DNA of 64,000 nucleotides from Clostridia bacterium (GTDB lineage: Bacteria; Bacillota; Clostridia; CAKSNL01; HGM11501): contig JAZQAZ010000008.1 in NCBI GenBank assembly GCA_045545475.1, positions 122,691 to 186,690 on the forward strand, in the 5' to 3' direction. A program made the position numbers and the translations under genes. Position 1 is the stretch's first letter, and the number at the start of each line of letters is the position of its first letter. Below, piece after piece: positions 7,933 through 52,110 of the stretch. The notes below the pieces were generated by a model. That model had not been told where the DNA came from. It made no database searches and saw only the letters and a list, made by a program, of their open reading frames with translations.

Positions 7933-7961
7933 AGTATAATTTCAAAGATTGATTTTGTCAA
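7933..7961 (-). promoter_or_regulatory. sigma-A promoter for paaK-ACT
   Basis: TTGACA-17 bp-TATACT on minus strand. Confidence 0.7.
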
Positions 7962-8696
7962 TTATTTTTTTCTGTAAACACTTGGGGAAACTCCAAATTC
8001 TTTTTTGAATTCTTTGGAAAAATAAAACTGGTCATAAAATCCTGCTTCAATAGCAATATCCGAAATTGGTTTATCTGTATTAAGTAAAAGATTAGTTGCG
8101 TGGGAGATTCTGCATTTTCTTATATATTGCTTTGGAGATTCGTTAAGATGTTCTGAAAAAAGTTTATATATTGCCGATTCTGAAATATTCGCACTTTTGG
8201 CCATGTCGGAAATATTAAAACTCTGAGAATGGTTGTTTTCTATATAGGAAATGAGCGGAAGCAACTTCTGATTAATACGATTATCTTCTTTTTCAATAAA
8301 TGTTTCCGAATTGTATATTATCAGATATTCCATTGACTTTTTCAGTATGTCTTCCGTCTTATTCGTGGAACTAAATCCGTAAAAGTACTTTTCTAAATTT
8401 TTAGAAATAGTTTCCTCAGAGGAACAGTGAATAAATGATTTGTTTTTTGGCATAGAGAATTCTTTTTCATATATGTAATATGAAAAAGAGGCTATGGACA
8501 CATTTCTTTTTTGCGGATACGAGAATGAAACAATTGTAAACGGAGGAATGATTATTGTTTCGTTTGTGGAAACTTCATCTGTTTTGCCGCCCGAACTGAT
8601 GTTTAAGTTGCCTTCTTTTAGGTATACAATTTTTGTATATATGTCATTTTTAAAATCGATGGATTCGCCTGTAATTAAATCGTATCTTATATCCAT
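7962..8696 (-). CDS. AraC family transcriptional regulator
   Basis: C-terminal double HTH (IAIEAGFYDQFYFSKEFKKEFGVSPSVYR); start ATG 8696 after GAGGTG. Confidence 0.88.
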   Translation of the reverse strand: MDIRYDLITGESIDFKNDIYTKIVYLKEGNLNISSGGKTDEVSTNETIIIPPFTIVSFSYPQKRNVSIASFSYYIYEKEFSMPKNKSFIHCSSEETISKNLEKYFYGFSSTNKTEDILKKSMEYLIIYNSETFIEKEDNRINQKLLPLISYIENNHSQSFNISDMAKSANISESAIYKLFSEHLNESPKQYIRKCRISHATNLLLNTDKPISDIAIEAGFYDQFYFSKEFKKEFGVSPSVYRKK

Positions 8697-18470: not shown

Positions 18471-18875
18471 GTGAAGAAATATCTGCTGATAATTTTTAGC
18501 ATATTAATTTTGATAGCTTTGATTTTTGTGATGTTTTTGCCTGAAAAGACAAACACAGAAGCCGGTAAAACAGTAACACTTATATGTGCTATTGAAGATA
18601 TGGATGTAAATACCGAACTTTCAGCCGAACATTCAAAAATAATTACAGAAATTTTCAATAATAAAGCACTGTATGATGAAAATCCGCCGCTTTGCCCCTG
18701 CAATAAAAATTTCTCTTTTAAGATAGGTAAAAAAACATTTTGCATTGCAGTAGATGGGTGTCCGACAATTTACATAGATGAAAAATCAAGTTATTTTTAT
18801 TTGACAGAGGAAGAAAATGAGATAATAAACGATATTTTAATGGAATATGGCGTGAACAGAGATGTACTTTTTTAA
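18471..18875 (+). CDS. Hypothetical membrane-anchored/exported protein
   Basis: N-terminal hydrophobic helix; Cys motif CPC...C....C; upstream promoter and GGAG RBS. Confidence 0.7.
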   Translation: MKKYLLIIFSILILIALIFVMFLPEKTNTEAGKTVTLICAIEDMDVNTELSAEHSKIITEIFNNKALYDENPPLCPCNKNFSFKIGKKTFCIAVDGCPTIYIDEKSSYFYLTEEENEIINDILMEYGVNRDVLF

Positions 18876-46033: not shown

Positions 46034-46984
46034 ATGAAAATTACAGTACTTGATGCAAAAACTTTAGGTGAAGATTTATCTCTGGAACCGCTTAAGACTG
46101 TTGGAGAATGTGTTATATATGGCGAAACCAAATCTGAAGAAATTGCAGAACGCATAAAAGACACAGATGTTGTTATCATAAATAAAATCAAGCTTAATGA
46201 AACAAACTTAAAAGATGCAAAAAACTTAAAGCTTATATGTTTAGCTGCAACGGGATACGATAATGTTGATACTGTTTACTGCAGAGAACACGGCATTGCG
46301 GTATGTAATGTTGTAGGATACTCATCCCACTCGGTGGCACAGCTTACAGCAACATTGGTTCTGGCGTTATCGACAAACCTTACATCCTATACAGATTTTG
46401 TAAATAAAAGGAAATATCAGAAAAGCGGCGTTGCAAACCGTCTTACCCCGGTTTATCACGAATTATTTGGAAAGACCTGGGGAATTATCGGCTACGGAAA
46501 TATCGGAAAAGAAGTGGGAGGTATTGCTAAAGCTTTAGGATGTAATGTAATATACACAAGAAAAACTCCAGACGAAAATACCATTGATATTGATACACTT
46601 TGCAAAGAAGCTGATATCATAACAATTCACACCCCTTTGAACCCTGAAACAAAGCATTTAATTAATGAAAATAGAATCAATTCAATGAAAAAAGATGTGA
46701 TAATAGTAAATGTTGCCCGTGGTGCAGTTACTGATGAAGAAGCTGTAGCAAATGCAATAAAAACAGGTAGGGTAGGGGGCTTTGCAACGGATGTATACTC
46801 TGTTGAACCCTTTGGCGATAATCATCCCTTTAACGATATATTAAATCATCCTAATGTACTCCTGACACCTCATATGGCATGGGGAGCTTATGAAGCGAGG
46901 AAAAGATGTTTAGATGAAATCATAGAAAACATCAAAGCATTTTATAACGGCGATTTAAGATGCCGTGTAGATTTATTTGAATAA
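46034..46984 (+). CDS. D-2-hydroxyacid dehydrogenase (glycerate dehydrogenase-like)
   Basis: ATGYDNVD, GIIGYGNIG, NVARG, DVYSVEP and TPHMAW motifs. Confidence 0.92.
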   Translation: MKITVLDAKTLGEDLSLEPLKTVGECVIYGETKSEEIAERIKDTDVVIINKIKLNETNLKDAKNLKLICLAATGYDNVDTVYCREHGIAVCNVVGYSSHSVAQLTATLVLALSTNLTSYTDFVNKRKYQKSGVANRLTPVYHELFGKTWGIIGYGNIGKEVGGIAKALGCNVIYTRKTPDENTIDIDTLCKEADIITIHTPLNPETKHLINENRINSMKKDVIIVNVARGAVTDEEAVANAIKTGRVGGFATDVYSVEPFGDNHPFNDILNHPNVLLTPHMAWGAYEARKRCLDEIIENIKAFYNGDLRCRVDLFE

Positions 46985-47008
46985 AAAAAGTGCCCGTTAG
47001 GCACTTTT
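46983..47008. terminator. Bidirectional terminator
   Basis: AAAAAAAGTGCC-CGTTA-GGCACTTTTT. Confidence 0.75.
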
Positions 47009-48051
47009 TATTCTTCGGGTATTGCTCTATTTCGCATAATCTCTTTTTTTGCTTTTGCACTGTACTGAGCATAGAATTTATGGGTAACTTCAATATTTTT
47101 ATGTCCCATTAATTCCGCTACCATTTTTATATCAACACCCTCTTCTAAAAGTGTGCAGGCAAAAGTTCTTCTAAGAGCGTGAGGCCTCGTTTTATCTTTA
47201 TTTGTTATCCCGGCCATAAGACAGTAAGTTTTAAGGTTATGTTCTACGCTTGAAATAGTGAGTCTTTCTCCGTTTCTTGACACAAAAAGGGCATCGGTCT
47301 TATAATTTTGCTCCTTTCTCCATTCGATATAACTTAAAAGTTCATTTTCAACTTGAATCGGCATAAAAATTTCGTCTTCATTTCCGCCTTTACGGGTAAC
47401 AGTAAAGGAAGATGTCTCAAAATCCACATCCGAAACGTCCAGATTTACTAGTTCGCTGACACGAACACCTGTTCCTAAATAGGTGAGATACAGAGCGATA
47501 TCGCGTTTTTTACGATTTAAATACTCTGTTAAAAGGCGACCGGTAAAGTAGTTTTCGCCGTTTAATATTACATCCATCAAGCGCATGGTTTCCTGGATGG
47601 TGAGAGGTTTTTTGATTTTCTGAACAAGCTTATTCATATCAATTTTAAGAGTAACGTTTTGTGAAATTTTATCTGTTTTATAAAGATAAGAAAATAAGCT
47701 TCTTAATGATGACATTTTACGGTTTATGCCAAAGGAAGAATTTCTATGTGTTCGCTGGTAGCTTTCTCCGTCAGCATTAACGTAGGTAAGTGTGTACTGC
47801 TTAAGATAGGATTTATATTCAAGGAGATCATCAACTGTTATTTTATCCATATCAGCTTCAGTGAAGTACTCATAGGATGAATATTTAAATTTTCCTGATT
47901 CAATTAAAAAATTGAGAAAGATTCGTATGTCGAGAGCAAATGCAAGCTGGGTATTAATGGATTCGCCGTCGTAATAGTAATCGATGAAGCGGAATACAAA
48001 ATCAGGTAATTCAGTTAAATGATTTCTCAATTTCGTTTGTTTATCTACCAT
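47008..48051 (-). CDS. Tyrosine recombinase, XerS-like
   Basis: Catalytic R (TGVRVSEL), K (RKGG), HxxR (PHALRR), MGH and Y; 347 aa with the extended N-terminus (LRNHLTELPDFV) reminiscent of XerS; no phage or ICE genes nearby. Confidence 0.85.
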   Translation of the reverse strand: MVDKQTKLRNHLTELPDFVFRFIDYYYDGESINTQLAFALDIRIFLNFLIESGKFKYSSYEYFTEADMDKITVDDLLEYKSYLKQYTLTYVNADGESYQRTHRNSSFGINRKMSSLRSLFSYLYKTDKISQNVTLKIDMNKLVQKIKKPLTIQETMRLMDVILNGENYFTGRLLTEYLNRKKRDIALYLTYLGTGVRVSELVNLDVSDVDFETSSFTVTRKGGNEDEIFMPIQVENELLSYIEWRKEQNYKTDALFVSRNGERLTISSVEHNLKTYCLMAGITNKDKTRPHALRRTFACTLLEEGVDIKMVAELMGHKNIEVTHKFYAQYSAKAKKEIMRNRAIPEE

Positions 48052-48100
48052 GGCTAAAAACTCCTGAAAATGCTGGGGAAGGCTTAAAAACGTAATTCCA

Positions 48101-48128
48101 ATTCAGATAAATAGTTATTTATCTGAAA
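48101..48128. other. Candidate dif (difSL-like) recombination site
   Basis: ATTCAGATAAA-TAGTTA-TTTATCTGAAA (11-6-11); perfect 12-bp arms at 48102-48113 and 48116-48127; 50 bp upstream of the recombinase; at the gene-strand switch. Confidence 0.7.
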
Positions 48129-48172
48129 ATAAACGTATTTCGCTTTATATATCCCCTGCAGTATTTTTAATA

Positions 48173-48225
48173 AAAGCGATGCTGTTATTCATAAAAATTA
48201 AAAAACAGCATCGCTAATTTTTTTG
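48173..48225 (-). terminator. Terminator after pgm
   Basis: AGCGATGCTGTT...AACAGCATCGCT stem followed by a T-run on the minus strand. Confidence 0.65.
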
Positions 48226-49932
48226 TTACATTACCAATGTTTTTAATTCATCTATAAGTTTATCGGATAATTCATCTGCTGCAGTTTTACGTTCTGCTTT
48301 TGCACCAACATATATCTTAAGTTTAGGCTCTGTTCCGGAGGGCCTTAAAACTCCCCAGATACCGCCTTCTATTTCAAAGTATAATACATTGGATTCAGGA
48401 AGCAAAAGCTTTTCTTCTGTTCCGTTTTCAAAATCGTATCTGATTTTCTTTTTATAATCTCTTAAAGCTAAAACCTTTTTACCTGCTAAAACCCTAGGAG
48501 GATTATTTCTTGCCTTCTCCATAGAGCTTTTTATCTGCTCTACCCCATCAAGACCTTCTCTATAAATGTTATATACGCCTTCTTTATACCATCCGTATTT
48601 ATTATACATATCGCAAAGAGCATCGTACAACGTCTTTCCTTGAAGACTGTAATATGCAGCCATTTCAGCTATTAACATGGAGGCTACAACTCCGTCTTTG
48701 TCACGAGCATGAATTCCTGCAAGATAGCCGTAACTTTCCTCAAAACCGAACATATAATGCATATTTCCGTTTTCTTCGTGTTCTTTTATAAGTTCTCCGA
48801 TAAATTTGAATCCGGTGAGACATTCAAACATGGTTACGCCGTAATTCTCAGCGATAGAACGTATAATATCTGTAGTTACTATAGTTTTAACTACGAAGGG
48901 ATTTTCGCTCATAAGTCCCTTTTCGGTACGCTGTGACAATATGTATTCGCAAAGAAGAGAACCTATCTGATTGCCGGTAAATGTTATGTACTCCCCTTCC
49001 GAATTTTTAACGACAATGCCGACTCTGTCGCAATCGGGATCTGTGCCTATGATAAGGTCAACATCTTTTTCTTTAGCCATGTTTATGGCAATTGTGAAGC
49101 CTTCTTTGTCTTCGGGATTGGGAGATTTTACTGTGGGAAAATCTCCATCGGGGGTACATTGTTCTGTTACCTCATACACATTTTTAAGGCCTATTGCGGA
49201 AAAAGCCTTCATTACAGGCTTATAACCTGTTCCATGAAAAGGTGTATAAATTATCTTAAAGGTCTCCCCTGCTTTTTTTGTAGCTTCTTTATTAATCTGT
49301 TGTTTAAGCACTTCTTTGAGAAATTCGTTTTCAATTTCTTCGCCGATATACTCTATCAATTCCGGCTTGACGGGAGAGTCGAATTCTTCGAAGAGTGACA
49401 TGGATGTTATTTTTTCTACAATACTGTCAGCAACTTCAGGACCAATCTGACATCCGTCATCGCCGTAAACCTTATATCCGTTATATTTTGAGGGATTATG
49501 GCTGGCTGTAACCATTATTCCAGCAGAACATTTAAGAAATCTTGTAGCAAAGCTAACTTCCGGTACAGGTTTAAGCTCTTCAAAAAGGTATACTTTAATA
49601 CCGTATCTTGTAAGAGTTTCTGCTGCTTCCTTAGCAAAAACATCGGATTTATGGCGTGAATCGTATCCTATCACAACAGACGGATTAGTCGCACCGGATT
49701 CTTTTATATATAAAGCCAGAGCCTTTGTTGCACGGCGTACAACGTAGACATTCATTCTGTTTGTTCCGGCGGCAATCACGCCTCTCAATCCTGCTGTACC
49801 AAAGGCAAGTTCGGCACCAAAACGTTCTTTTATTTCGTCATCATTGTCTTTTATAGCCAAAAGTTCCGCTTTTAATTCGGGTAAAAGGCTTTCGTTTGAA
49901 ATCCATTCTGAATACTTTTCCATATAACTCAT
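48226..49932 (-). CDS. pgm: Phosphoglucomutase/phosphomannomutase
   Basis: FGTAGLRG, TASHNP, DPDCDR, FEESYG and RPSGTEPK motifs. Confidence 0.93.
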   Translation of the reverse strand: MSYMEKYSEWISNESLLPELKAELLAIKDNDDEIKERFGAELAFGTAGLRGVIAAGTNRMNVYVVRRATKALALYIKESGATNPSVVIGYDSRHKSDVFAKEAAETLTRYGIKVYLFEELKPVPEVSFATRFLKCSAGIMVTASHNPSKYNGYKVYGDDGCQIGPEVADSIVEKITSMSLFEEFDSPVKPELIEYIGEEIENEFLKEVLKQQINKEATKKAGETFKIIYTPFHGTGYKPVMKAFSAIGLKNVYEVTEQCTPDGDFPTVKSPNPEDKEGFTIAINMAKEKDVDLIIGTDPDCDRVGIVVKNSEGEYITFTGNQIGSLLCEYILSQRTEKGLMSENPFVVKTIVTTDIIRSIAENYGVTMFECLTGFKFIGELIKEHEENGNMHYMFGFEESYGYLAGIHARDKDGVVASMLIAEMAAYYSLQGKTLYDALCDMYNKYGWYKEGVYNIYREGLDGVEQIKSSMEKARNNPPRVLAGKKVLALRDYKKKIRYDFENGTEEKLLLPESNVLYFEIEGGIWGVLRPSGTEPKLKIYVGAKAERKTAADELSDKLIDELKTLVM

Positions 49933-50055: not shown

Positions 50056-52110
50056 TTATTCTTCTGTTGTGATTTCAGGCATATTCTCTGCCATTGTAGC
50101 GGTATTCTCTTCCTTGTATTCAGTAACTTCTTCTTCACCTTCGGCAGCTTCTTCAGCCACAGGAGCTTCGACTACTTCTTCAGGAAGGAGTGCTCTTATA
50201 GAAAGTGCAATCTTGGGAGTAGGAGTTGCGTCCCAGTTAATGTCGATAATCTTTGCGTCAACTTTCTGACCCTTGGAAAGCTCGTCAGAGGGTTTTGAAA
50301 TTCTCTTGTTAGCAATCTGAGAAATGTGCACAAGACCTTCTACGCCGGGAATAAGTTCTGCAAAAGCACCGAATGCTGTTACGTTTGTAATTGTAACATT
50401 TACTACGTTGCCTACTTCGAACTTGCTCTTTGCGATTACCCAGGGATTCTCTTCATCCTTCTTGTAACCAAGAGAAACCTTAGACTTTCCGTTTTCGTCA
50501 GTATCAATCTTAAGGATACGAACGGTGATTTCGTCGCCAACCTTGATTACCTCGGAAGGATGCTTAATCTTAGCCCAGGAGAGCTGAGATATGTGAACAA
50601 GACCTTCTACACCGCCGATATCAACGAATGCACCGAAATCGGTAAGTGTCTTAACAACACCCTTGTATTCCTTGCCTACTTCAGCGTCAGCCCAGAAAGC
50701 TTCAGCTTTCTTAGCTTTTTCAGCAAGAAGAACCTGCTTGATTGAACCAAGAATCTTCTTGGAGCGTCTGTCGAACTTAATAATCTTTACAGGCACCTGT
50801 TTTGCGGGATCAACAAGTACGGAAAGGTCGCTTAAATATCTGTCATTAGCCTGAGAGCCGGGAACAAATACTCTGATACCTTCACAAAGTACAATAACGC
50901 CGCCTTTTACAGCTTCGATTATAATACCGGAAAGGATAGTGCCATTTTCCATAGCTTCTTCAAGAACAGCATACTTTTTCTCATTATCAAGCTTCTTTTT
51001 GGAAAGAAGTACAGTTCCTTCAACGTCGTTAACGCGAATTACGAAAACATCGATTTCTTCGCCAACTTTTACAACATCTTCGGGTGCAAGGGTGGGATCA
51101 TCTGTCAATTCACTTGCAGGAATTATACCGTCTGACTTATAGTTAAGGTTTACGATAACTTCTGTAGGATGAATCGCAACTACTGTGCCTTTAACCTTTT
51201 CACCTGTATGTAAGGTAACGAGAGCGTTATCAAGCGCTGCCGCCCAGTTTTCCTCCTCATTTATATTCTGTGTTACTTTTGTGTTTTCTTCCATTGTATG
51301 AAGAACCTCCTTTATTATCCAGTCCGGCGTTGATGCACCGGCTGTTACACCAATTCGTTTGCGGATATATTCTTCCGCATCCGGCAGATCAAATGCACCT
51401 TCTACATGGTATACTTCATCGCATGCAGTTTTTGCAATCTCCACCAGTTTTTTATTATTTGAGCTGTGTTTACCGCCGATGACAAAAAACACATCGGATT
51501 CTTTTGCCAGCTCCAAGGCTTCCCTTTGCCTTAATTCAGTAGCACTACATATTGTATCAAAAAACAGTACCGTTTGGCAAGTGTTTTTTATAAATTCTTT
51601 TAAATTTTTCCAAAAAACACTACTTGCCGTAGTTTGTGATACAACACAAAGTTTGCTGTTTTTTAATTTTTTTAATTTTTCAGGGGCTTCTTCCATATTT
51701 TTTATTATTATGGCACTATTGTCGCACCATCCGTTTATTCCGATTACTTCCGGATGTGTACTATCCCCCGCAATTATTATATTATAACATGCTTTATGAT
51801 ATTTTTCAACTATTGTTTGAATTTTTTTTACAAAAGGACATGTGGCATCAATAAAATCAACATTTATACTTTCGGCAATCGCTTTTGATACACCATGACT
51901 TCGTATTACAACTGTTTCGTTTGCTGTCTGTTCACAGATTTCATTTATAATTCTTACGCCTTTTTCTGAAAGCGAAGACACAACTCTCTCGTTATGTATA
52001 ATAGGCCCTAATGTTGCTATTTTCTTTCCTTCTTCGAGTCCGGTATAAACAAAATCCAATGCTCGTGATACTCCGAAACAAAAACCTGCTGACTTTGCAA
52101 CCTTAATCAT
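50056..52110 (-). CDS. ispH: Bifunctional IspH (LytB) / ribosomal protein S1 fusion
   Basis: GFCFGV, DATCP, TICSAT and TAGASTP motifs, followed by four S1 repeats (FGAFV...GLVHISQ). Confidence 0.94.
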   Translation of the reverse strand: MIKVAKSAGFCFGVSRALDFVYTGLEEGKKIATLGPIIHNERVVSSLSEKGVRIINEICEQTANETVVIRSHGVSKAIAESINVDFIDATCPFVKKIQTIVEKYHKACYNIIIAGDSTHPEVIGINGWCDNSAIIIKNMEEAPEKLKKLKNSKLCVVSQTTASSVFWKNLKEFIKNTCQTVLFFDTICSATELRQREALELAKESDVFFVIGGKHSSNNKKLVEIAKTACDEVYHVEGAFDLPDAEEYIRKRIGVTAGASTPDWIIKEVLHTMEENTKVTQNINEEENWAAALDNALVTLHTGEKVKGTVVAIHPTEVIVNLNYKSDGIIPASELTDDPTLAPEDVVKVGEEIDVFVIRVNDVEGTVLLSKKKLDNEKKYAVLEEAMENGTILSGIIIEAVKGGVIVLCEGIRVFVPGSQANDRYLSDLSVLVDPAKQVPVKIIKFDRRSKKILGSIKQVLLAEKAKKAEAFWADAEVGKEYKGVVKTLTDFGAFVDIGGVEGLVHISQLSWAKIKHPSEVIKVGDEITVRILKIDTDENGKSKVSLGYKKDEENPWVIAKSKFEVGNVVNVTITNVTAFGAFAELIPGVEGLVHISQIANKRISKPSDELSKGQKVDAKIIDINWDATPTPKIALSIRALLPEEVVEAPVAEEAAEGEEEVTEYKEENTATMAENMPEITTEE

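Follow-up and report, generated by a model that had tools for sequence, protein, structure and literature searches.

Does a tyrosine recombinase gene that stands alone in a clostridial genome, with a palindrome just ahead of its start codon, form a self-contained system for resolving chromosome dimers? The question is raised by a locus in a 64,000-nucleotide stretch of DNA from a Clostridia bacterium (hereafter the window; GenBank assembly GCA_045545475.1, contig JAZQAZ010000008.1, positions 122,691 to 186,690 of the forward strand; genome G000, contig C8 in our collection). A preliminary description of the letters alone had proposed a module resembling the XerS/difSL system of streptococci and lactococci. 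Sequence comparison across related genomes makes it likely that palindrome and recombinase form a module for chromosome dimer resolution, in which the palindrome is the dif site, placed at the replication terminus, and the recombinase the enzyme acting on it. The elements concerned, in window coordinates, are the following.

47008..48051, minus strand: gene P0001 for a long Xer-type tyrosine recombinase of 347 amino acids, an open reading frame with a Pfam Phage_integrase score of 112.6 bits.
48102..48127, no strand: candidate dif site, a 26-bp palindrome TTCAGATAAATA-GT-TATTTATCTGAA with two identical arms round a short centre, picked out by sequence, uniqueness and conservation.
48097..48127, no strand: 31-bp conserved island, made up of the palindrome and, on its gene-proximal side only, a further 5 bp (TCCAA on the plus strand, TTGGA in gene orientation), defined by alignment of 200 bp upstream of eight orthologues.
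48082, no strand: maximum of the cumulative GC skew of the contig, a terminus-type switch from plus to minus (G000:C8:170772).

The palindrome is separated from the ATG by 50 nt, the distance reported before. Its nested base pairs give perfect 12-bp arms round a 2-bp centre, GT on the plus strand and AC in gene orientation; an 11-6-11 reading leaves the outermost A/A unpaired. Taken as a recombinase core site, it has arms of 10-11 bp and a centre of 4-6 bp, with the asymmetry confined to the middle dinucleotide. The perfect 12-bp arms of the preliminary description therefore stand, and its asymmetric core holds for the central dinucleotide only. The exact 26-mer occurs once in the window, where 100 shuffles gave an expectation of zero, and once in the 2.74-Mb genome of 50 contigs, in which a search allowing up to six mismatches returned just one unrelated match. 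The check for a single copy, called for in the preliminary description, thus came out positive in a draft that is 95% complete, so the uniqueness of the site is not absolute. Palindromy by itself was rejected as evidence: counting arms of 12 bp or more and spacers of up to 6 bp, we found 394 perfect palindromes in the genome, most of them terminator-like. Since such palindromes are common, the case for a dif site rests on conservation and position.

Orthologues of the recombinase at 82-100% identity were present in eight genomes of one small family, the window genome included. Loss of the palindrome among orthologues had been named as an outcome that would speak against the proposal; it is kept upstream of the gene in all eight loci, at about the same distance from the ATG. 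In the upstream alignment the 31-bp island (alignment positions 125-155) is invariant in the eight loci except at two symmetric positions, and the flanks diverge. The sole change, found in G009 and G007, is a C>A and a G>T occurring together, one in each arm, so that the symmetry is kept.

The skew maximum of the contig lies 20 bp from the palindrome, and the profile of the window peaks at 46-48 kb; on the whole contig the skew is positive over the 170 kb before the maximum and negative over the 16 kb after it. The opposite, origin-type minimum was found on contig C34 at 18441, beside dnaA at 18850, so that the two switches fall on different contigs of the draft. In the relatives, for which skew was computed on up to 40 kb on each side of the site (an 80-kb stretch; 70 kb for G002), the distance from site to maximum was 43 bp in G009, 21 bp in G007, 100 bp in G002 and 789 bp in G008, with a clean change of sign. 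The suggested location at the GC-skew terminus was thus confirmed in 5/5 genomes with enough flank, the window genome and four relatives, which are related and partly syntenic and are not independent trials.

The protein retains an intact active site. When the protein is aligned with authentic XerS, with XerD and with relatives, R197, K221, H291-x-x-R294, H317 and Y327 are invariant, so that all six residues of the R-K-HxxR-H-Y signature noted earlier are accounted for. Among NCBIfam models XerS (equivalog NF003462) scored highest, at 151.4 bits against a cut-off of 267, in a full-length match that aligned residues 5-341 with model positions 7-355; XerA followed with 146 bits, and XerC (TIGR02224) and XerD (TIGR02225) with 144.0 and 139.3 bits, missing their cut-offs of 335 and 330. 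The nearest solved folds to an AlphaFold2 (AF2) model of the protein (predicted local distance difference test score, pLDDT, 85.8) were XerA, XerD and XerH. Protein-database names are generic, apart from a single automatic "XerS" label, and the named relatives are metagenome-assembled genomes of uncultured "Clostridia bacterium" from gut samples. The order of the source genome is represented by one family only in the genome collection searched.

For comparison with genuine XerS we assembled loci in which the Lactococcus lactis difSL motif (PMC2965235) was found; it occurred in more than 100 metagenome contigs, and 80 loci were examined. A homologous open reading frame was readable in 57 of the 80, and 24 of the 25 unique listed proteins are 356 amino acids long, starting 57-90 bp after the site. 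Three authentic XerS proteins scored 529-561 bits on the XerS model and are 26-28% identical to the window recombinase. Quick maximum-likelihood trees of 47 and 44 proteins contained four supported clades: the window protein with its orthologues at 54-65% identity (support 99), a second Clostridia clade (99-100), Streptococcaceae XerS (100) and a megaplasmid clade (100). These form a polytomy within a weakly supported group (84-85), apart from XerD and from an XerC-like Clostridia clade. The earlier designation as XerS-like is consequently apt for length and layout and fails for family membership, given the missed XerS cut-off (151 versus 267 bits) and quick trees that did not resolve a sister relation to XerS. 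The window recombinase probably works in the manner of XerS/difSL while belonging outside the XerS family, in a clade of its own.

A second argument of the preliminary description, an ungapped alignment of the site with difSL, fared less well. The difSL core quoted there agrees, except at its end, with the L. lactis site as given in PMC2965235, and an ungapped match does exist, with 17/26 identities on the plus strand and 16/26 in gene orientation. Because a score of at least 17 against difSL is reached at 609 of 5.48 million genome positions, the likeness is not significant, and homology of the two sites was rejected as evidence.

How many recombinases act on the site was approached through gene content. 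The window genome has five genes of the Phage_integrase family, none of which reaches the XerC or XerD cut-off, so that no canonical XerC/XerD pair was found in it; the best scorer on the XerD model is the 347-aa recombinase itself. The other four are a phage-type gene beside a helicase (C40), two genes at 124-126 kb of C10, and a gene for a 277-aa Xer-like protein (C20). XerD-like genes (E≤1e-80) were found in 0/7 other sampled genomes of the family versus 164/301 in a sample of the class. Among 65 genomes with a long XerS-like recombinase, XerD is present in 28 and absent from 37, and in the window's family XerD loss, identical arms and linkage of gene and site go together. A single recombinase is thus suggested by the absence of a partner from draft genomes together with the symmetry of the arms. 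FtsK with a gamma domain (101.9 bits) is encoded on C48. As a separate observation, the GC skew of C10 is locally inverted at about 105-120 kb, a few kb from the two integrase genes (123668-124633 and 124931-126196), and the region at about 105-126 kb is probably an integrated mobile element.

From these features we infer the following course of events. Two copies of the recombinase would bind the identical arms of the palindrome. In a chromosome dimer the two dif copies would be brought together at the closing septum, where four identical subunits would exchange strands in two steps across the short central region, making the reaction one of a homotetramer. The polarity that a symmetric site requires could come from the central AC/GT and the one-sided TTGGA extension, and FtsK with its gamma domain would probably deliver and activate the complex, on which dimer resolution would then depend.

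Is the site tied to the terminus or to the gene? Orthologues at 54-65% identity occur in 13 genomes outside the family (12 plus G024; 301-genome class sample), including 10/10 of family f12. A linked palindrome in this wider clade was looked for and rejected, none being conserved beside the gene in 14 loci (L009, L010 and L081-L092). One of these, L010 (G004:C115), is the only match in G004, which belongs to the same genus as the window genome and is 6% contaminated; this locus groups tightly with G024 of another family, has no palindrome, and is probably a contaminant contig in the G004 bin. In G024, G266 and G311, which represent three other Clostridia families, the orthologue (57-65% identity) and a related site, recognized by the half-site TCAGATAAA and common flanks, lie on different contigs:

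G024, contig C82: unlinked site TCTGTTAAAT-AGTT-ATTTATATGA, 51 bp from the local skew maximum.
G266, contig C2: unlinked site TCAGATAAAG-AACA-ATTTATAAGA, 152 bp from the local skew maximum.
G311, contig C1: unlinked site CCAAGTCAGATAAA-TTACTC-TTTATCTGACTTGG with perfect 14-bp arms, 661 bp from the local skew maximum.

The G266 site has the CCAATTCAGATAAA arm in common with the window site, and its other arm, with the adjoining flank, in common with the G024 site. The recombinase gene of G024 is away from any skew switch. As the unlinked sites nevertheless lie at the switch, the site appears to track the terminus and not the gene; G024 and G311, with only 1.2 kb and 4.4 kb of contig beyond the site on one side, are the weaker evidence. 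A strict pattern search (up to three mismatches) gave matches in 4/10 genomes, namely G013, where it is the linked site itself, G024, G266 and G170. A looser degenerate pattern was noisy, with non-zero controls, and four two-mismatch matches from it (G311, G093, G222 and G063) were checked. The last three of these, like the G170 match, do not lie at a skew switch; all four were counted as chance.

Several observations weigh against a self-contained single-recombinase module. The eight loci with a linked palindrome come from one small family of related metagenome-assembled genomes and are not independent, and an RNA hairpin accounts for the compensatory arm change equally well. Just 15.9 kb of contig lies past the site in the window genome, and contigs C3 and C6 likewise show a short positive stretch ahead of a negative run. 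In a 50-contig draft with 5% missing, a partner gene or a second dif could have escaped assembly. Full-length XerS-like matches were not obtained from five more genomes of the family; four are 59-89% complete and one, G011, is 91% complete. By hand tally, a canonical XerD accompanies the 54-65% orthologues in 13/13 sampled genomes outside the family; the protein family is thus not one that by its nature stands alone, and the perfect palindrome of G311 occurs in a genome with XerD. Finally, the window genome encodes a second, small Xer-like recombinase, the one on C20. On G011 itself (same genus as the window genome, 10 contigs), we note that no XerD-like gene was found in it either, only two copies of the small multicopy recombinase and one other partial match; its terminus may be unassembled, or it may resolve dimers by other means.

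The rival explanation that ranks highest, although we regard it as unlikely, is that the site is a true dif served by two recombinases, the long one and an unrecognised partner that is either the Xer-like protein of C20 or the product of an unassembled gene, much as the orthologues outside the family may pair with XerD. The 13/13 co-occurrence speaks for such pairing, as does the finding that G024 and G266, and likewise G063, have no other XerC-like gene. The C20 gene (G000:C20:109096-109926; L066 8097-8930) would be at hand in the window genome, its 277-aa product scoring 120 bits on the XerD model. The arms, however, are identical over 12 bp, with a sole change that is symmetric, and an XerD-like gene was found in 0/8 genomes of the family, G000 included. 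Genes of the C20 type moreover occur in 1-10 copies per genome, the copies being 46-60% identical, with 30 places in the family besides the C20 gene itself, and were not found in G013, which carries the module, making this protein a poor candidate for an obligate partner. The C20 gene of G000 lies between a DUF1846 gene and a 1315-aa open reading frame without Pfam match, and one copy in G008 is 1.3 kb from the dif module of that genome; recombinases of this type may be phase-variation invertases.

It is very unlikely, in our estimate, that the palindrome serves to regulate the recombinase gene, as an operator or as a hairpin in the 5'-untranslated region, and lies at the terminus because the gene does, the real recombination site being elsewhere or absent. 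Its position 50 nt from the ATG would suit this role; the upstream region folds as RNA better than shuffled sequences do (z -3.26), and the compensatory change in the arms would be expected of a hairpin no less than of a dyad-symmetric binding site. Against this, the sites of G024, G266 and G311 lie at the skew switch and far from the orthologous gene, the search with up to six mismatches found no other dif-like sequence in the genome, and the candidate site agrees with recombinase core sites in its length of 31 bp and in its geometry, whether read as 11-6-11 or 12-2-12.

We give hardly any credence to the possibility that the locus is the remnant of an integrase attachment site, or a captured plasmid-type multimer resolution module, without a role in chromosome segregation. 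A tblastn search of 50,697 phage and 72,556 plasmid records gave no match of 60% identity or more; 341 phage and 4543 plasmid records matched, the best at 31-36%. The best mobile relatives are on megaplasmids of Bacillales and Clostridium and in an unverified faecal "Bacteriophage sp." record. That these relatives are full-length (megaplasmids of Paenibacillus, Bacillus thuringiensis and Clostridium perfringens among them) lends the idea some support, as does the view that XerS and XerH may stem from mobile elements, found in the consulted part of bioRxiv 10.1101/542381. It is opposed by the clade of the window protein, which stands apart from the plasmid clade with support of 99-100; by the site, which sits precisely at the skew switch in 5/5 genomes; and by the ten scanned genes around the module, among which there are no mobile-element genes and the synteny of the phosphoglucomutase gene (pgm) is partly kept. 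Both statements of the preliminary description on this point hold, namely that mobile-element neighbours are absent and, its check on grouping having been carried out, that the protein does not fall among mobile-element integrases. Equally remote is some other terminus-linked task of the recombinase, such as decatenation, which XerH has been proposed to aid in Helicobacter (in the part of PMC5357621 consulted), or control of an invertible segment, for a single site copy excludes inversion or excision within one chromosome, and decatenation by Xer proteins, with the same site and chemistry, would be an added rather than a distinct role.

Two side observations concern viral sequences. The XerS-like gene of the unverified "Bacteriophage sp." record (L248, MT835555.1) nests among chromosomal genes of family f26 in the second Clostridia clade; the sequence recorded may come from the chromosome or from a phage with a captured host gene. 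A TTAAG variant of the 26-mer, TTAAGATAAATA-RY-TATTTATCTTAA, is carried by 14 IMG/VR contigs (L249-L262; one family, about 33% G+C, similar flanks), where it lies about 10 bp before an ATG and misses the TTGGA extension; a recombinase homologue was found in none of the 14. In L260, the one contig annotated, it occupies 7947-7972, between a baseplate wedge gene and an open reading frame of more than 1155 aa, in a T4-like phage with genes for ribonucleotide reductase (RNR), DnaB, gp25 and a gp6-like protein. The viral variant probably matches by chance, as an AT-rich hairpin may, or forms the hairpin of a phage promoter; less probably, it may be a dif mimic.

Around the likely module of palindrome and recombinase the window has the following features.

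46034..46984, plus strand: D-2-hydroxyacid dehydrogenase gene (Pfam 2-Hacid_dh), the convergent downstream neighbour, syntenic in 4/8 orthologous loci.
46985..47009, no strand: G+C-rich hairpin AAAAAGTGCC-CGTTA-GGCACTTTTT between the convergent recombinase and dehydrogenase genes, from the listing of perfect palindromes.
48175..48215, minus strand: hairpin AGCGATGCTGTT...AACAGCATCGCT followed by a T run, read by eye, its loop being too long for the consensus scan.
48226..49932, minus strand: phosphoglucomutase gene (Pfam PGM_PMM I-IV), the upstream neighbour, outside the module, syntenic in 6/8 orthologous loci.

The first hairpin is a probable bidirectional terminator and the second the probable terminator of the phosphoglucomutase gene; if so, the palindrome would belong to a separate intergenic unit. 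A promoter and terminator consensus scan of 46900-48300 found nothing upstream of the recombinase gene. The ten neighbours scanned are housekeeping or metabolic genes or have no Pfam match; they include oxidoreductases, the 2-hydroxyacid dehydrogenase, phosphoglucomutase, IspH-S1, an acyltransferase and cytidylate kinase. Gene orientation had been said to flip at the palindrome; the flip is instead at 46984/47008, where the recombinase gene has its 3' end, 1.1 kb from the palindrome. The IspH-S1 gene (50056-52110, minus strand) encodes a 684-aa protein in which IspH (LytB) is fused to four S1 RNA-binding domains. Elsewhere in G000, AT-rich palindromes of the form AAATTTC-N6-GAAATTT cluster at about ten loci, two or three to a locus and spaced by 110-245 bp (a loose regular expression gave 34 matches); among these loci are C17:25172/25357, C17:65625/65867, C23:93025/93151/93277, C29:20344/20465, C41:4630/4760, C47:29885/30012 and C48:33523-35030. 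This family may be the operator of a regulator.

Gene-linked symmetric sites were also seen with other recombinases of the class. The XerC-like clade of other Clostridia families (about 320-340 aa, 218-230 bits on XerC against the cut-off of 335; L017 at G015:C10:139361, L028 at G030:C3:222641, L025 at G020:C3:51052, and L018, L021, L027 and L029) has an upstream palindrome, TAnAC[A/G]AAAT-AAAAA-TTT[T/C]GTnTA, in which changes between genomes affect both arms symmetrically. Its distance from the local GC-skew maximum was 122-3320 bp in 3/3 genomes tested, and G015 and G030 also have an XerD-like gene. In the second XerS-like clade (about 35% identity, 172-181 bits on XerS), a difSL-like site, ACTATTCGCAAAA-CACAAG-TTTTGCGAATAGT, precedes the gene (L099, G192:C1 at about 2270830; L012, L011 and L098; further genes at G190:C1:2528295 and G252:C1:115627). 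The gene is 1.1-2.3 kb from the local skew maximum in three single-contig genomes.

A broader reading, which we put forward tentatively and think somewhat less probable than its opposite, is that the recombinase clade records the origin of a single-recombinase Xer system and that much of the Clostridia may depart from the textbook XerCD/dif arrangement. If this were true, the sister families would use the long recombinase with XerD at an unlinked, mostly imperfect terminus dif; in the window's family XerD would have been lost, the arms would have become identical and the site would have come to lie beside the gene; and gene-linked, dyad-symmetric terminus sites would exist in at least two further Clostridia clades, one XerC-like and one nearer XerS. 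A further independent single-recombinase lineage with a symmetric site would offer a natural test of strand-exchange order and of FtsK control without arm asymmetry, and relatives with XerD and an unlinked site a comparative series for loss of the second recombinase. In practical terms, the 31-bp site could serve as a replication-terminus marker for genomes of uncultured gut Clostridia, and it is a possible docking site for Xer-exploiting mobile elements.

The single-recombinase dif systems named in the accessible parts of PMC5357621 (2017) and PMC9765430 (2022) are only XerS, XerH and XerL in bacteria and XerA in archaea, and Clostridia are mentioned in neither; the latter paper, as far as consulted, gives only XerS and XerH as earlier bacterial cases and calls long perfect inverted repeats unusual for dif. 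The string "Clostridi" is absent from the available text of PMC5357621, and no account of an XerS-like or single-recombinase dif system in Clostridia was found in the portions consulted of PMC3025954, PMC8136486, PMC5357621, PMC1914069, PMC2965235, PMC2731167, PMC9765430, bioRxiv 10.1101/542381 and PMC4876114 or elsewhere in the literature searched, where the supplementary tables of PMC3025954 (Firmicutes dif) and PMC8136486 (Firmicutes XerS) may bear on novelty. Within these limits the impression in the preliminary description that the system had not been characterised in Clostridia was upheld.

The locus shows the general features of Xer/dif systems: an intergenic site of about 28-31 bp, inverted arms, a short centre, one copy in the draft and a position at the skew switch. 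With XerC/XerD (CodV/RipX, 28-bp dif) it has in common the superfamily, the catalytic residues, the terminus position and presumably the coupling to FtsK, and to our eye the window arms may share the TTAT-N-T-N-AA look of published dif arms; it differs in its single protein, its identical arms (those of the 28-bp dif are unlike) and the linkage of gene and site. Cre/loxP of phage P1 resembles it in site logic, with perfect inverted arms, one protein and polarity drawn solely from an asymmetric spacer, from which a homotetramer would be expected here too. loxP has 13-bp arms and an 8-bp spacer, and Cre serves a plasmid prophage and needs no FtsK; as a structure it is only a distant match to the window model (E about 1e-4).

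XerH/difH of Helicobacter and Campylobacter likewise pairs a single long recombinase, of 354-362 aa, with a site near its gene (PMC5357621, in the part consulted), and XerH is a structural neighbour of the window model (5jjv, E 1.1e-8) at 19% sequence identity. The difH arms, by contrast, are imperfect and unequal, and the hosts belong to another phylum. XerL/dif of the Legionellales, as presented in the consulted part of PMC9765430, offers a single recombinase in a lineage without XerC/XerD and a terminus dif with uninterrupted inverted repeats of 10-12 bp; in Legionella xerL is more than 400 kb from dif, whereas gene and site are adjacent here.

XerS/difSL, described in the parts consulted of Le Bourgeois 2007 (PMC1914069) and Nolivos 2010 (PMC2965235), departs from the window system in further respects: the difSL arms are unequal and imperfect and are bound asymmetrically by XerS (PMC5357621 and PMC2965235, as far as available), unlike the perfect 12-bp arms here, and the window protein has a beta-hairpin insertion (residues 85-103) that is absent from XerS. 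The two systems agree in layout. Each has one long recombinase (356 versus 347 aa) whose gene is preceded, at a distance of some tens of bases, by a site of about 31 bp, 50 nt from the ATG in the window and with the site start 57-90 nt ahead in XerS loci; each module lies at the terminus, XerS is the best family model for the window protein, and the window genome encodes an FtsK gamma domain.

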